Shown piece by piece: positions 19,837 to 30,837 of a stretch of DNA of 64,000 nt (the stretch's first letter is position 1; the number at the start of each line of letters is the position of its first letter). The notes under the pieces are model-generated. The model was given only the letters and a program-made list of their open reading frames with translations. It was not told where the DNA came from and did no database searches. Origin of the DNA: Escherichia phage phT4A. The DNA is taken from the sequence record NC_055712.1; one strand, 5' to 3'. The position numbers and the translations under genes are program-made.

Positions 19837-21405
19837 ATGTCTAAGAAAAACGAATTGATGGAAAAATGGAACGATCTTCTGGAGTCTCAGGAAGGCTTAC
19901 CGGATATCGCTACCAAATCCAAAAAACAACTGATTGCTGCCATTATGGAAGCACAGGAAAAAGACGCAGAAGTTGATCCGGTTTACCGCGACGAGAAAAT
20001 CGTTGAATCCTTCGGTGGTTTCCTGGCGGAAGCTGAAATTGCTGGTGACCACGGTTACGACGCAACCAAAATCGCTTCTGGTAACTCAAGCGGTGCTATC
20101 ACCAACATCGGCCCTGCTGTAATCGGTATGGTTCGCCGTGCGATTCCTAACCTGATTGCGTTCGATATCTGCGGTGTTCAGCCTATGACTGGCCCTACTG
20201 GTCAGGTGTTCGCTCTCCGCGCAGTGTACGGCAAAGATCCGCTGGCTTCCGGTGCTAAAGAAGCATTCCATCCGATGTTCTCCCCGGATAGCATGTACTC
20301 CGGTCAGGGCGCGGCTCCGAGCAACGGCTTTAACGAACTGGCTTCCGGTACTGCTATCGCTGACGGCGCTATCGTGTTCCACGATTTCTCTGAAACTGGT
20401 CGTGTGTTCCTCCAGAACGTTTCTGGCTCTCCGGTTACTGTAACTGGTTCTACCGCCGATGCTCTGGATGCTGCTGTTATCGCCGAACAGGAAAAAGGTA
20501 CTCTGGCTGAAATTTCTTACGGTATGGCTACCAGTGTAGCAGAACTGCAAGAACAGTTCAACGGTTCTACTGGCAACCCGTGGAACGAAATGGGCTTCCG
20601 TATCGATAAGCAGGTTATCGAAGCACGTAGCCGCCAACTGAAAGCACAGTACTCTGTAGAACTGGCTCAGGATCTCCGCGCTGTTCACGGTATGGACGCT
20701 GACGCCGAACTGTCTGCTATTCTGGCAACCGAAATCATGCTGGAAATCAACCGCGAAATCGTTGACATGATCAACTATACCGCACAGGTTGGTAAAACTG
20801 GTTTCACTCAGACCGTTGGCTCTAAAGCTGGTGCGTTTGACTTCCAGGATCCGATTGATGTTCGTGGCGCTCGTTGGGCTGGTGAAAGCTACAAAGCTCT
20901 GCTGATTCAGATCGACAAAGAAGCAAACGAAATCGCACGTCAAACTGGTCGTGGTGCTGGTAACTTCATCATCGCTTCCCGTAACGTGGTTTCCGCTCTG
21001 GCTCGTATCGATAGCGGTATCACTCCGGCAGGTCAAGGTCTCCAGAAGACTCTGAACGTTGACACCACTAAAGCAGTATTCGCTGGTGTTCTGGGTGGCG
21101 TGTACAAAGTATACATCGACCAGTATGCACGTGGTGATTACTTCACCGTGGGTTACAAAGGCGATAACGAAATGGATGCTGGTATCTACTACGCTCCGTA
21201 TGTTGCGCTGACCCCGCTGCGTGGTTCTGATCCGAAGAACTTCCAGCCAGTAATGGGCTTCAAAACTCGTTACGGTGTAGGTATCAACCCGTTTGCGAAC
21301 TCTCGCTCTCAGGCTCCGTCCGACCGTATCACTTCTGGTATGATTACCAAAGAAATGTTCGGTAAAAACGCATACTTCCGCAAGGTTTATGTGAAAGGCT
21401 TATAA
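19837..21405 (+). CDS. 23: major capsid protein gp23
   Basis: 522 aa (T4 gp23 521 aa); near-identical blocks (GPAVxGMVRRAIPNLIAFDICGVQPM, GSDPKNFQPVMGFKTRYG). Confidence 0.98.
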   Translation: MSKKNELMEKWNDLLESQEGLPDIATKSKKQLIAAIMEAQEKDAEVDPVYRDEKIVESFGGFLAEAEIAGDHGYDATKIASGNSSGAITNIGPAVIGMVRRAIPNLIAFDICGVQPMTGPTGQVFALRAVYGKDPLASGAKEAFHPMFSPDSMYSGQGAAPSNGFNELASGTAIADGAIVFHDFSETGRVFLQNVSGSPVTVTGSTADALDAAVIAEQEKGTLAEISYGMATSVAELQEQFNGSTGNPWNEMGFRIDKQVIEARSRQLKAQYSVELAQDLRAVHGMDADAELSAILATEIMLEINREIVDMINYTAQVGKTGFTQTVGSKAGAFDFQDPIDVRGARWAGESYKALLIQIDKEANEIARQTGRGAGNFIIASRNVVSALARIDSGITPAGQGLQKTLNVDTTKAVFAGVLGGVYKVYIDQYARGDYFTVGYKGDNEMDAGIYYAPYVALTPLRGSDPKNFQPVMGFKTRYGVGINPFANSRSQAPSDRITSGMITKEMFGKNAYFRKVYVKGL

Positions 21406-26434: not shown

Positions 26435-27058
26435 ATGAGTATTGATTACGAAAAGGTTGAAGGTTTCAAAGCCTTAGAACAAAAAGAAGCCAAATTACAG
26501 CTTGCTACCTACGCGCAAGAAACGTTTGATGTCAAACTGAACCGTCAGAAGTCATTCGAAAATATGCTTGCTGATCTGGAAGCTGCCGTACCGGAAGAAA
26601 AACCGGAACTGTTGATCGACTCCCCTGATCCTGAAATTGTTACATACGAAGGTGAACCATCTGTTCCTGATGTTGTTATTGATGTGACTAACGATTTCAT
26701 GGATTACGTTAAAGAGGTTGCTCCGGAAATCGCAGACCAGATTGAAATTGTTCCCGACGCTCTACAAGCTCCTGTAAGCGATTCTGAGACGGTTTCTGAT
26801 GAACTGGCATGGATGGAAGGGTTTACCCCGTCTATCATCATGATGGGCCGCTCTGTTTCGAATACTGGCTTTTATACGTGTCCGTATTGGATCTATGATT
26901 GGATGAAACAAAATCCGGATTGGTACAAGCATCCTGATGGTTGCCCTCATTATTCAGCGCGTCAAACCCTCAAGTCGCTGGCATGGTACATGCACCGTGA
27001 TGGGATGGTTACTGTACGCGAAACCAGAAATAGCCAGTTCGACACGTTCAAAAAATAA
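26435..27058 (+). CDS. hypothetical protein (acidic N-terminal half, Cys/His/Trp-rich C-terminal half)
   Basis: 207 aa ORF with GGAG RBS 9 nt upstream of the ATG at 26435; divergent from uvsW; no family recognised. Confidence 0.55.
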   Translation: MSIDYEKVEGFKALEQKEAKLQLATYAQETFDVKLNRQKSFENMLADLEAAVPEEKPELLIDSPDPEIVTYEGEPSVPDVVIDVTNDFMDYVKEVAPEIADQIEIVPDALQAPVSDSETVSDELAWMEGFTPSIIMMGRSVSNTGFYTCPYWIYDWMKQNPDWYKHPDGCPHYSARQTLKSLAWYMHRDGMVTVRETRNSQFDTFKK

Positions 27059-27492: not shown

Positions 27493-27501
27493 AGGTGAAA
27501 T

Positions 27502-28071
27502 ATGAACTTAAATCACGAATGTTTAAAAGATTTGAGCGATGGTAACGAGATTGGTAACGTTATTTTTCTTGATATCGATGGCGTTCTAAATAATATGCGG
27601 TGCATGAAATTTGGTGAACATATGGACATCGAATGCGCACGACACTTACGCCGGATAGTGAATCACGCTAATTGTGATATCGTCATTTCCTCTACGTGGA
27701 GAATCGGCAACAGTACCCATAATCTACGTGAAATATTTTATCCGTGGGGATTGTATCGGATCATTGGTAAAACTTGCACTAACTTCCCTCATAGCACTGG
27801 AATGCGTGGTGATGAAATCAAGGCATGGATCGATACTTTCGGATGTAAAAACTATCTCATTCTTGATGATGACACCGATATGCTTTCTTCACAAAAAGAT
27901 CATTTTATTAACACTGATGGGTTTGTTGGGTTGACCGAAGAACAATCCACTTATGCGATCCGTAACATTTTCGGGGTTACTACTCCGTTTTGTCCTGAAT
28001 GCAATGGGTATGGACGTGTTAACGGCTACGACAAATGCGGAACGTGTAACGGTAAAATACTCCGGCTATAA
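27502..28071 (+). CDS. HAD-superfamily phosphatase-like protein with C-terminal zinc ribbon
   Basis: 189 aa; HAD motif I VIFLDIDGVLNN near the N-terminus, ILDDD later; CPECNGYG...CGTCNG at the C-terminus. Confidence 0.6.
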   Translation: MNLNHECLKDLSDGNEIGNVIFLDIDGVLNNMRCMKFGEHMDIECARHLRRIVNHANCDIVISSTWRIGNSTHNLREIFYPWGLYRIIGKTCTNFPHSTGMRGDEIKAWIDTFGCKNYLILDDDTDMLSSQKDHFINTDGFVGLTEEQSTYAIRNIFGVTTPFCPECNGYGRVNGYDKCGTCNGKILRL

Positions 28072-28074
28072 ATA
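28067..28074 (+). promoter_or_regulatory. late promoter box TATAAATA upstream of the hoc-like gene
   Basis: Exact TATAAATA 25 nt upstream of the ATG at 28100. Confidence 0.55.
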
Positions 28075-28099
28075 CCAATAAACATAAGAGGTTAAATTT

Positions 28100-28633
28100 A
28101 TGGCAATTCCTTCTGTAACAATTAGCGCCAACAAAAACGAACTTTTGATTGGTGAAACTTTGACCTTAGAGGTTAAAAATACTGAACTAGATCCGGGTGA
28201 TGTGTTTCTGGCCTACCGTTGGCAAAAAGATGGTGTAGATATTCCAGGCGCAACCGCCGATACTTACACAACTACGGTTGACGGTACAACTGCTGGTGAT
28301 TATACCCTGATCTTAAAACACGGTGCTGATGAAGAATCAGCAACAGAAACCACGTCAGATACAATCACCGTGACCACTTATTCTGATGATCTCGTTTCTA
28401 AATGGACGGTTCACCCGATTCCGTGGCGTGATACCAGCTTTACCCCGATCGGTTATTGGGTACTTGATGAAATTCTGTATCAGAAAGCACAGGGTAAAGA
28501 TTGGAAAACTGATTATGCTGATTACAAGTATAGTGAGGAAGTACAAACGATCCTGAAAGCGTTCATGGAAAACGGTGAATGTGAGATCCAGGATTCACGA
28601 AACGGCTATATTCATAAAATGAGTGAAATCTAA
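28100..28633 (+). CDS. hoc: mini-Hoc: one Ig-like domain + Hoc-type capsid-binding C-terminal domain
   Basis: 177 aa; N-terminal Ig-like segment (YRWQKDG..GATADTYTTTV..GDYTL); C-terminus HPIPWR..S....GYWV(L/M)DEI...GKDWKTD...(Q/I)(D/E)SRNGYIHK resembles the T4 Hoc capsid-binding domain. Confidence 0.7.
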   Translation: MAIPSVTISANKNELLIGETLTLEVKNTELDPGDVFLAYRWQKDGVDIPGATADTYTTTVDGTTAGDYTLILKHGADEESATETTSDTITVTTYSDDLVSKWTVHPIPWRDTSFTPIGYWVLDEILYQKAQGKDWKTDYADYKYSEEVQTILKAFMENGECEIQDSRNGYIHKMSEI

Positions 28634-28643
28634 GAGGCTTTAA

Positions 28644-28919
28644 ATGGCAACTGAAAAATGGACTACGGTTCATCCTATTCCGTGGAGAAATACCAGTTTT
28701 ACATATCTTCCATACTGGCTATACGATATTATCGTTGATGCTTTTGAGAAAGGCGACGACTGGCGCGATTATGCGGAAGAAAAATATAAATTAGAGTTTG
28801 ATACTCTGAAAGAGGCGTTTGAAGATTATGGTGATATTCATGTAATCGAATCTCGTAATGGTAAACTGGTTAGTCTGTTGTCATTGACTCCTGCTCCTGA
28901 ACCAGATCCTGACCAATAA
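28644..28919 (+). CDS. Hoc C-terminal (capsid-binding) domain paralog lacking an Ig domain
   Basis: 91 aa; KWTTVHPIPWRNTSFTYLPYW..DDWRDYAEEKY...IESRNGK is paralogous to the C-terminal half of the preceding gene. Confidence 0.6.
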   Translation: MATEKWTTVHPIPWRNTSFTYLPYWLYDIIVDAFEKGDDWRDYAEEKYKLEFDTLKEAFEDYGDIHVIESRNGKLVSLLSLTPAPEPDPDQ

Positions 28920-28932
28920 AATAAGGCAAACA

Positions 28933-29451
28933 ATGAATACACTTCTTTTTGATTTCGACGACACTTTAGCAGAATTTTCTCAGACTTTTTATGATAAGTT
29001 CGGTGTACGTCCGGAAGGAACGCCAAAAGAACGATATGACGAAATGGCGGCTTCTTTGGTGCGTACTGATTTTTATAAAAACCTTCCCCGTATTCAGGCT
29101 GGGATTGACCTCCTTCAATGGAGTTTCCAACGCCGAATCGGTGATCCTGCTACTTTGCTGCTTCGCGCGGAAGCGGTCAGCCCTCTTTGGGTTATGAAAG
29201 AAAAACTGAACTATACAGATAAGATTTGCGCTGAACTGGGGATCCCTCGTCTCGATTTTAGTCGCATTGACTATCCGGAACAGTTCGCAGAACATGCCTA
29301 TCGTGGTGTTCTGATTTCCCGCAACCAGAAACATCTTGAAATCTGGAACAATTCTCATCTAGCTAATAAAGTTCCTGGTATTTTCCTTGCGGAAACCCTG
29401 GAAGAAAATATTCAGCTAGTCACGGAAGCGCTTGCAAAGGCTAATCAATAA
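28933..29451 (+). CDS. HAD-superfamily hydrolase-like protein
   Basis: 172 aa; N-terminal LLFDFDDTLAEF (DxDx(T/V) motif I). Confidence 0.5.
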   Translation: MNTLLFDFDDTLAEFSQTFYDKFGVRPEGTPKERYDEMAASLVRTDFYKNLPRIQAGIDLLQWSFQRRIGDPATLLLRAEAVSPLWVMKEKLNYTDKICAELGIPRLDFSRIDYPEQFAEHAYRGVLISRNQKHLEIWNNSHLANKVPGIFLAETLEENIQLVTEALAKANQ

Positions 29452-29458
29452 CAAAAAA

Positions 29459-29485
29459 GGGAACCGCAATGGTTCCCTTTCTTTT
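29459..29485. terminator. bidirectional terminator between convergent genes (gggaacc-gcaat-ggttccc + T tract)
   Basis: 7-bp GC stem, A tract upstream, T tract downstream. Confidence 0.6.
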
Positions 29486-29948
29486 ACAATCTTTTTAATT
29501 CATCAAGCGCTGTTTTCTTATCACCAACAAAGAGGATTGCTTTACCTCCTGCTTTTCTGAAAGGCAACACCGCTTTTGCCCGATCGTCAAACAGAATTCC
29601 TTTACCAGCGAATGCTGCTTTTTCATGGCTACTTTTAACGTAGTGGAATTCTGGAACGTAACCCAATACTTTTTGTAATGCTTTACGTTTTTGTTCGGCA
29701 ACACCGTCAGAATTGAATTTACCGACACTGGTTAGTATTGCTACATCACCAAGTGTTCTTAAATGATGGAATAATTCAAATCCTTCTTTGATTGGTTCCA
29801 GATTTTCGTAGAAATCAGTTTTGGCAATTTTTGCTTTGCACTTTTTCAACTCATCTTCTGTCATCATAGAGGGTTCGCCATACATTGGCACAAATGAACC
29901 TTCCCAGTCGAACAATACACCATCCATATCAAAGAAAAACTTATTCAT
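29484..29948 (-). CDS. HAD-family 5'(3')-deoxyribonucleotidase-like phosphatase
   Basis: 154 aa; FFFDMDGVLFDW at the N-terminus, characteristic of NT5C-type HAD nucleotidases. Confidence 0.6.
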   Translation of the reverse strand: MNKFFFDMDGVLFDWEGSFVPMYGEPSMMTEDELKKCKAKIAKTDFYENLEPIKEGFELFHHLRTLGDVAILTSVGKFNSDGVAEQKRKALQKVLGYVPEFHYVKSSHEKAAFAGKGILFDDRAKAVLPFRKAGGKAILFVGDKKTALDELKRL

Positions 29949-29997: not shown

Positions 29998-30837
29998 TCA
30001 ACCCCAAGTGTCAGTTTTCGGTGCGTATGCTGCAACTTTAGCCACAATTTCCTTATCCAGTTCAGCTACAGATTTCTGAGGCTTACCACGGGCTTTAACT
30101 TTGATGTAGTTTGACTTAACAACAAACATCCCTTTGTTACTTGATTTCTTGATCTCGCTATCAACACCAACTTTGTTAAAGCTGATCCAAATGTCGCCGT
30201 CCATATACTGTTTAAGAGAATCACCCATGTTCAGGATCTTCGCCATAGTAAGGGCCGCGCCTTCGTGGGTATCCATGAGAATTTCTTTAGGAACTACACG
30301 ATCGCGTTTCTGGTTCTGCTGCATAGCAATATGCACATCGTTCATAACCCATACGATATGTACGTTTTCTTTTTTGTATCCCAGCGTTTCGACATCACGT
30401 GCGATGCTTGCCAGCTTGCTCATGCCTTTTAACGTTACGTCAAAGATGAGGTTAGGTTTACGATCTTCTGGTGCTGCCATAATACCGGAATAAACACGGT
30501 TTTGGTTTTTGTTGGAAATGTTGAAAACGTCGGCGATCACATGATGGAGGGTAGATACGTTTTCTGGGTTTTTGAGGTTCATTGTTTTGACATCATGACC
30601 CGTTTGTTTCTTGATCTCTGCTGCGAGTTTATCGCTACCCATTACAAGTTTTTTCAGGGCGTCAACGTCCAGGGTAATACCTTCGATGCCTAGCAGTTTT
30701 TCCAGTGTGAATCCTTTACCGGAACCAGCACCGCCAGCCAGAATAACAACCTGACCGAACTTAGGATAAGCACGGCCCCCGAAGGTGATCAGCGCTTCGG
30801 TTAAGGTGCTTTCTGTGAATTGTTTAAATGACTTCAT
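29998..30837 (-). CDS. glycine-rich-loop nucleotide-binding protein, NMP-kinase-like (function unknown)
   Basis: 279 aa; VVILAGGAGSGKGF resembles the adenylate/NMP-kinase P-loop (GxxGxGKG), later hhhhD (LIFDV) candidate Walker B. Confidence 0.5.
   Translation of the reverse strand: MKSFKQFTESTLTEALITFGGRAYPKFGQVVILAGGAGSGKGFTLEKLLGIEGITLDVDALKKLVMGSDKLAAEIKKQTGHDVKTMNLKNPENVSTLHHVIADVFNISNKNQNRVYSGIMAAPEDRKPNLIFDVTLKGMSKLASIARDVETLGYKKENVHIVWVMNDVHIAMQQNQKRDRVVPKEILMDTHEGAALTMAKILNMGDSLKQYMDGDIWISFNKVGVDSEIKKSSNKGMFVVKSNYIKVKARGKPQKSVAELDKEIVAKVAAYAPKTDTWG

Follow-up and report, generated by a model that had tools for sequence, protein, structure and literature searches.

We analysed a window of 64,000 nucleotides from Escherichia phage phT4A (NC_055712.1), in which two adjacent genes, ORF1 and ORF2, encode proteins with the capsid-binding domain (CBD) of the T4 head decoration protein Hoc (Table 1). 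The region 27500–29500 of the window was 99.6–99.8% identical to Klebsiella phages KP27 and Tauntaun_ER47, and approximately 110 KP15/KP27-like genomes (genus Slopekvirus, family Straboviridae) were matched by megablast. A Hoc-like annotation of both genes is already present in GenBank, where the KP15 and KP27 entries name them "Hoc head outer capsid protein" and "Hoc large outer capsid protein". The gene order in the window is uvsW (− strand), inh (+ strand), two small genes, ORF1, and ORF2, and that in T4 is uvsW-segE-inh-hoc; the two ORFs are thus located beside inh and uvsW, at the position of the Hoc family.

An AGAGG Shine-Dalgarno sequence lies 6–8 nt 5′ of each ORF, and ORF2, which follows the stop codon of ORF1 after a gap of 10 nt, has its own. 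The motif TATAAATA occurs 8 times in the window (7 on the + strand) against 4.1 matches expected by chance, and the match upstream of ORF1 is the only one near the locus; we assigned it a promoter role from the T4 late-promoter consensus. The KP27 equivalent of the strong stem-loop terminator is annotated on both strands (bidirectional), and the terminator probably closes a late transcription unit consisting of ORF1, ORF2, and a nucleotidase gene. From this promoter and terminator context we infer that ORF1 and ORF2 would be co-transcribed late. Fusion of ORF2 with, or read-through into, the downstream nucleotidase was considered and dismissed; the frames differ, ORF2 is closed by a TAA codon, and the nucleotidase gene starts from a codon of its own.

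Table 1. Positions of the features discussed (numbering of the window unless another locus is given).
Feature	Position	Strand	Evidence or remark
Hoc docking loop of the major capsid protein (gene 19837-21405)	20818-20874	+	Equivalent of T4 gp23 Gly326-Arg344
Inh C-terminal ~65 residues, distant Hoc CBD homologue	26861-27055	+	Within inh 26480-27058
T4-type late promoter motif	28067-28074	+	26 nt upstream of the ORF1 start codon
ORF1, mini-Hoc, 177 aa	28100-28633	+	PHROG, T4 Hoc alignment
ORF1 Ig-like domain, residues 1-95	28100-28384	+	9ncf_S (Ig-like domain protein), E 2.9e-13
ORF1 C-terminal Hoc CBD, residues 96-177	28385-28630	+	T4 Hoc match
ORF2, 91 aa, N-terminal-type Hoc CBD (residues ~1-81) and tail	28644-28919	+	Alignment, PHROG, AF2, Foldseek
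ORF2 acidic Pro-rich tail of 10 residues, residues 82-91 (TPAPEPDPDQ)			Linker remnant; cargo domain absent
Stem-loop terminator	29453-29483	called on −	13-bp stem, then T run
353-aa Hoc of phage PMBT1	L002 2101-3162		

Several neighboring genes gave observations of their own. The gene just 5′ of ORF1 (27502–28071, + strand) encodes a 189-aa "hypothetical protein" with a HAD_SAK_2 phosphatase-like domain (E 5e-29) and a DnaJ-type CxxCxGxG zinc-finger motif, the latter below the Pfam cut-off, and is kept at the same position in Slopekvirus, Pseudotevenvirus, and JC221. The genes at 28933–29451 (+ strand) and 29484–29948 (− strand) are convergent paralogs encoding 5′(3′)-deoxyribonucleotidase-like proteins, both of phrog_2643, with the terminator between them. 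The 279-aa protein encoded at 29998–30837 (− strand), which is hypothetical in KP27, contains a Zeta-toxin-like P-loop kinase domain (Pfam Zeta_toxin, E 2.8e-7).

A preliminary description of this DNA had read ORF1 as a mini-Hoc composed of one Ig-like domain and the CBD, and ORF2 as a CBD without any displayed part, and the alignments bear out both readings. Residues 27–173 of ORF1 aligned with residues 215–364 of T4 Hoc (E 1.6e-18), which comprise the third Ig domain and the C-domain, and residues 8–79 of ORF2 aligned with residues 293–365 (E 4.9e-10). The two ORFs aligned with each other (ORF1 101–169 and ORF2 5–73) with 50% identity over 70 residues (E 7e-21), and the motif string quoted earlier for the pair (HPIPWR..TSF..YW..D..DW..YK..SRNG) was found in both. 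Among the Hoc-like PHROG families, ORF1 matched phrog_1149 (E 1.5e-45) and ORF2 matched phrog_14282 (E 2.5e-62). A CBD profile run against all 652 six-frame segments of the window matched ORF1, ORF2, and, weakly, Inh, and no others. These CBD matches are far beyond chance. In searches of Pfam and NCBIfam, no match was obtained for ORF1 and only sub-threshold, chance-level matches for ORF2, and neither collection gave a model for the Hoc CBD or Inh.

The fold and the contact residues agree with these alignments. The AlphaFold (AF2) model of ORF2, which was made with a 34-sequence alignment and replaced a poor single-sequence run (pLDDT 63), had a pLDDT of 82.5 and the order beta-beta-helix-helix-beta-beta. 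A Foldseek search of the PDB with this model gave a single significant match, 8t1x_X (E 1.8e-6, TM 0.67, rmsd 2.1 Å over 74 columns), which is the C-domain of T4 Hoc attached to the gp23* capsomer. His295, Arg300, Trp310, and Asp313 of T4 Hoc correspond to H10, R15, W25, and D28 of ORF2, and the loop Glu355-Ser-Arg-Asn-Gly359 corresponds to E69-S-R-N-G73. Fokine et al. 2023 (PMC10385173) name these residues and the loop of T4 Hoc as conserved, either as capsid contacts or as structural pins. Both ORFs carry the His/Arg/Trp/Asp residues and the E-S-R-N-G loop of the Hoc CBD, with DSRNG in place of ESRNG in ORF1, and the model of ORF2 matches its fold, a four-stranded sheet with a helical bundle. 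The paralogs differ from each other at three other T4 contact positions: the equivalents of Trp306, Gln354, and Tyr360 are Y, I, and K in ORF2 and P, Q, and Y in ORF1. All three proteins are acidic, with a pI of 4.3–4.4 for ORF1 and ORF2 and 4.7 for T4 Hoc. In regards to the Ig string that precedes the CBD, ORF1 has one Ig-like domain and ORF2 has none, its CBD being followed by only 10 residues.

We compared the hoc locus among Slopekvirus genomes. Among the 60 records listed, 31 carried a locus of approximately 861 bp (860–867 bp) and 29 carried one of approximately 1389 bp (1389–1390 bp). The shorter form encodes the 177-aa one-Ig Hoc seen in the window and the longer form, as in PMBT1 and phiEap-3, encodes a 353-aa three-Ig Hoc. 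The two extra Ig domains of the 353-aa protein sit exactly between Y94 and S95, and the two forms differ by a clean in-frame indel of 528 bp with only 2 nt of microhomology at the junction; the comparison also took in the loci L018 and L019. Because near-identical sister genomes carry the 353-aa form, the mini-Hoc is a deletion allele of a polymorphic hoc gene. Single-Ig Hocs of 165–185 aa were common among the 148 representative clusters found. The Hoc of Klebsiella phage Lemur_ER36 has 469 aa. Both Hoc genes of this phage (L006 581–2495) were highly diverged from those of the window (dS 0.8–1.1), and the adjoining nucleotidase gene (L006 2504–3022) was nearly identical to its counterpart (dS 0.06). 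The Hoc cassette of Lemur_ER36 looks like a mosaic or exchanged module, to judge from these distances.

ORF2 belongs to a lineage other than that of the C-terminal domain of ORF1. Its residues matched the PHROG profiles from their first position (1–90 of 246 in phrog_14282, 1–84 of 167 in phrog_11091, and 1–71 of 502 in phrog_9703), and these three families have the CBD at the N-terminus. In a neighbor-joining tree of 33 CBDs, which is rough and was made without bootstrap, all N-anchored CBDs including that of ORF2 formed one clade, and the CBD of ORF1 fell among the conventional C-terminal CBDs, in another clade. The tree and the register of the PHROG matches led us to reject ORF2 as a recent duplicate of the C-terminus of ORF1. 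The preliminary description had called ORF2 a paralog of the C-terminal domain of ORF1; this holds insofar as the two CBDs are homologous (50% identity), but the CBD of ORF2 groups with the separate N-anchored lineage.

Orthologs of ORF2 were found in Pseudotevenvirus/RB43, JC221, and Lemur_ER36 at the same genomic position and with the same MATEKWTTVHPIPWR start, with 68–81% identity over residues 1–84. In these proteins, of 164–245 aa, the CBD is followed by a Pro-rich linker and then by one or two Ig-like domains. The ortholog of Lemur_ER36 (164 aa, 81% identity over the CBD) continues into a Big_2-like domain, a call that falls below the Pfam cut-off in the only one of these proteins scored by Pfam; those of Cronobacter phage SemperBestia (Pseudotevenvirus) and Yersinia phage JC221 have 172 and 166 aa, respectively. 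In a DNA alignment the window diverges from Lemur_ER36 and SemperBestia right after the codons of ...SLLSLTP and reaches a stop eight codons on (PAPEPDPDQ), and approximately 230 bp of Ig-like cargo coding sequence present in the two phages has no counterpart in the window. The matching of profiles from position 1, the longer orthologs at the same site, the tree, and the missing cargo DNA together indicate that ORF2 is a cargo-less derivative of a second, older, N-anchored Hoc lineage, and not a full member of it. In Pseudotevenvirus and JC221 the N-anchored protein is the sole CBD protein of the genome (one place per record by tblastn), which means that this lineage can serve as the Hoc of a phage.

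The N-anchored lineage also includes forms with an enzyme as cargo. The ortholog of Erwinia phage COW86c has 508 aa and a GDSL-type esterase at its C-terminal end; in this gene (L005 2501–4027) the capsid anchor is fused to a GDSL/SGNH esterase (Lipase_GDSL_2, E 4e-18), and display of the esterase on the head is predicted, an arrangement that has been reported for PG7. In a metagenomic contig (L023 1183–2719) a CBD-GDSL gene is split by a frameshift into ORFs of 111 and 417 aa. Six short metagenomic representatives (P0030, P0099, P0111, P0013, P0050, and P0004) consist of the CBD only. P0004, the one that was checked, was rejected as an independent case, as it is a frameshift-split fragment of a CBD-GDSL gene, and none of the six was counted as evidence. 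A further metagenomic representative, P0008 (184 aa), has an N-anchored CBD and, after it, an Ig domain (LPATK...TVAVTGGTSPYTYVW) like Ig domain 2 of the 353-aa Slopekvirus Hoc, and this likeness suggests domain shuffling between the two Hoc lineages.

We examined whether ORF2 is retained in related genomes. All 110 Slopekvirus records matched by megablast covered at least 80% of the two-ORF query, and each of the 60 listed covered 100%. [quoted passage not shown] With the ORF2 protein as the tblastn query, 79 records showed at least 99% identity and 31 showed 95–99%, so that 110 records had at least 95% identity over the full length. Codon-by-codon inspection of eight genomes revealed no frameshift or stop. 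In the CBD (codons 1–84) of these genomes there were four segregating nucleotide sites, three synonymous and one a conservative D38E replacement, a ratio of synonymous to non-synonymous sites of 3 to 1 compared with approximately 1 to 4 predicted by neutrality. The tail varied in frame (PAPEPVTDQ, PAPAPEPDPDQ). The dN/dS value between ORF2 and the full-length ortholog of Lemur_ER36 was 0.17, and when amino-acid changes were assigned with five outgroups, the truncated branch received 4 and the Lemur branch 9, with 3 ambiguous. The intact ORFs, the pattern of sites in the CBD, the dN/dS value, and the branch changes give no apparent sign of decay or relaxed constraint in ORF2, although these tests are weak, because the truncated clade is young (at most 2% divergence) and the comparison is of one non-synonymous with three synonymous sites.

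These data bear on the possibility that ORF2 is a recently truncated and functionally spent remnant which, whether or not it is expressed, plays no selected part and survives only owing to the youth of the KP27/KP15 clade. In favor of this, ORF2 has lost the cargo domain, in which the function of a decoration protein presumably resides, and its tail is variable; in a clade of this divergence an intact ORF is a weak sign of selection, and Hoc itself is dispensable in T4 (PMC10385173). The unbroken frame in the eight genomes and the 110 full-length tblastn records are, however, not what a spent gene would lead us to expect, nor are the excess of synonymous sites in the CBD and the lack of acceleration relative to the Lemur ortholog. 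ORF2 has also kept all capsid-contact motifs, a strong Shine-Dalgarno sequence, and its late operon context. We consider it rather unlikely that ORF2 is such a remnant.

The weak match of the CBD profile to Inh proved to reflect distant homology. The inh gene, which encodes the prohead-protease inhibitor, was identified by phrog_1051 (E 1.4e-58). ORF2 matched the Inh PHROG (E 0.017) and Inh matched a Hoc PHROG (E 0.0086), and these reciprocal weak matches agreed in register. The CBD HMM matched eight of eight diverse Inh proteins in register with 17–26 bits; the proteins were taken from T4 and from Acinetobacter, Krischvirus, Shewanella, Slopekvirus, and Pseudotevenvirus phages. Profile-profile alignment of Inh with the CBD by hhalign gave a probability of 96.8% (P 3e-10, 63 columns), compared with 0.1% for a reversed-sequence control. 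The inh and hoc genes are neighbors in T4 as well, which suggests an ancient tandem duplication. No mention of an Inh-Hoc relationship was found in the searchable literature, and it may have been known before.

A CBD-like domain in Inh, a prohead-associated protein, implies that this fold is used outside the decoration of the mature capsid, and ORF2 is small and without cargo. It could then be a non-virion protein, a soluble intracellular CBD that acts, for example, as a chaperone or decoy delaying or limiting the attachment of Hoc, or that binds Inh or prohead intermediates. This role has no direct support; the nearest relatives of ORF2 are cargo-bearing proteins annotated as head decoration, and the contact residues of ORF2 fit the binding mode of the mature capsid. 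We regard a non-virion role as highly improbable.

The docking site on the capsid is conserved in this phage. The loop GSKAGAFDFQDPIDVRGAR of the major capsid protein shares 17 of its 19 residues with that of T4 gp23, among them Asp336 and Arg344. In T4, the Hoc CBD contacts gp23 Gly326-Arg344, and both of these residues take part in the contact; one Hoc is bound per gp23* hexamer after expansion, and the CBD lies near the center of the capsomer and touches all six subunits (PMC10385173). The preliminary description had suggested that ORF2 could compete for Hoc sites or decorate a different capsomer position, and the T4 structure favors same-site competition over a different position.

Building on the homology, fold, architecture, conservation, and synteny of the two ORFs and on the conserved docking loop, we propose that ORF1 and ORF2 are two late-expressed head-decoration proteins that share the Hoc CBD as their anchor. 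ORF1 would be a conventional Hoc cut to one Ig domain by the in-frame 528-bp deletion, and ORF2 would be the cargo-less member of the second, older, CBD-first lineage, of which the anchor and a short acidic Pro-rich tail are left. After expansion of the capsid each protein would dock at the center of a major-capsid-protein hexamer. As each hexamer offers a single site, which is covered by the CBD, the two should exclude each other on any one capsomer and would compete for roughly 155 sites. Some hexamers of the virion would then carry a short Ig fiber and others would be capped by a bare acidic plug, in a mosaic. Overall, the coat of Ig fibers would become sparser and shorter, on a surface that is still acidic and whose hexamer centers are still occupied. 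In Lemur-type phages the same arrangement would show two different adhesin-like domains. We give this model of competition and a mosaic surface a probability of approximately 0.55. Both genes would have to be expressed and both proteins would have to be present in the virion and compete there for the same site, steps that we infer, as we do any effect on fitness. We found no Slopekvirus with published virion proteomics, transcriptomics, or cryo-EM in the searchable literature.

The differences between the CBDs at the equivalents of W306, Q354, and Y360 make a different affinity, orientation, or hexamer preference possible. In another reading, the second option of the preliminary description, the two proteins would not compete, and the diverged CBD of ORF2 would prefer another subset of capsomers (e.g., vertex-proximal or cap hexamers as opposed to those of the midsection) or another site. 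The two CBD lineages are old and separate, as would suit such partitioning, and T4 Hoc shows orientation preferences on vertex-proximal hexamers (PMC10385173). Against this, conservation holds for both the core docking residues and the capsid loop, and the N-anchored type is the sole CBD protein in Pseudotevenvirus and JC221, where it must serve the general hexamer site. We know of no second type of site for the Hoc CBD fold. Partitioning of the sites is, in our estimate, distinctly unlikely.

The structural effects of Hoc in T4 are only marginal, and a bare plug could therefore be nearly neutral. A more ambitious extension of the competition model, which we hold to be unlikely, sees the cargo-less anchor as a "blank" under selection, by which the number of Ig fibers on the capsid, and hence adhesion and immunogenicity, would be tuned, and as one of three proteins of this locus (Inh, Hoc, and ORF2) with a common hexamer-center-binding fold. 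If this were true, Inh would reach the capsid-protein hexamers of the prohead by the same fold and the decoration proteins would later take over the site, and an ancestral domain shared by these proteins would link protease control with head decoration.

T4 nanotechnology uses Hoc as its main display scaffold, and Hoc has been proposed to serve in adhesion to mucus and the host. ORF2 is a natural bare anchor of 81 folded residues, and it is fixed across a large number of related therapeutic Klebsiella phages. Its conservation suggests that the anchor may stand alone, and it could provide a minimal natural display tag for either terminus. The bare anchor also points to a natural dilution of the immunogenic Ig coat. 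Together with the polymorphism between one-Ig and three-Ig Hocs, it implies that near-identical Slopekvirus candidates for therapy may differ in their surface properties.

Single-Ig Hocs, phages with two Hocs, and N-terminal CBDs are already known (Fokine et al. 2023, PMC10385173). We found no description in the literature of the cargo-less N-anchored form or of its fixation in the KP15/KP27 clade. The finding is incremental, a variation within the well-known Hoc family and not a new kind of system. T4 Hoc (PDB 8t1x, 5vf3) has the same CBD as both ORFs in sequence and predicted fold, with conserved contact residues, and resembles them in its syntenic locus beside inh and uvsW, its acidic character, and the conserved docking loop of its capsid. 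However, T4 has a single Hoc gene, whose product has three Ig domains N-terminal to the CBD, whereas ORF1 has one and ORF2 has none. The ORF1 Ig domain gave weak matches to the "Decoration protein" chains 5lxk and 8zvi, which we take to be pb10 of phage T5. No sequence match at E ≤ 1 was obtained between ORF2 and the binding domain of pb10. In pb10 a small N-terminal capsid-binding domain sits at hexamer centers and a C-terminal Ig-like domain is displayed (PMC5292684). This architecture matches that of the full-length ORF2 orthologs, and we regard pb10 as a functional analog and not as a member of the family.

Close parallels to the present pair are the phages that encode two Hoc-like proteins, such as Enterobacter phage PG7 and Serratia phage Muldoon (Fokine et al. 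2023, PMC10385173), which have two CBD-bearing genes in one phage, as here. PG7 encodes a one-Ig Hoc (233 aa) and a protein of 511 aa that has its CBD at the N-terminus and also contains a GDSL lipase/acylhydrolase domain (PMC10385173), and this is the same two-gene plan as that of ORF1 and ORF2. The members of phrog_14282 and phrog_11091 in Pseudotevenvirus/RB43, JC221, and Lemur_ER36 go on past the linker, and the N-anchored protein of PG7, with which the 508-aa protein of COW86c belongs in type, carries the GDSL domain as its cargo, whereas ORF2 stops after the linker and carries none.
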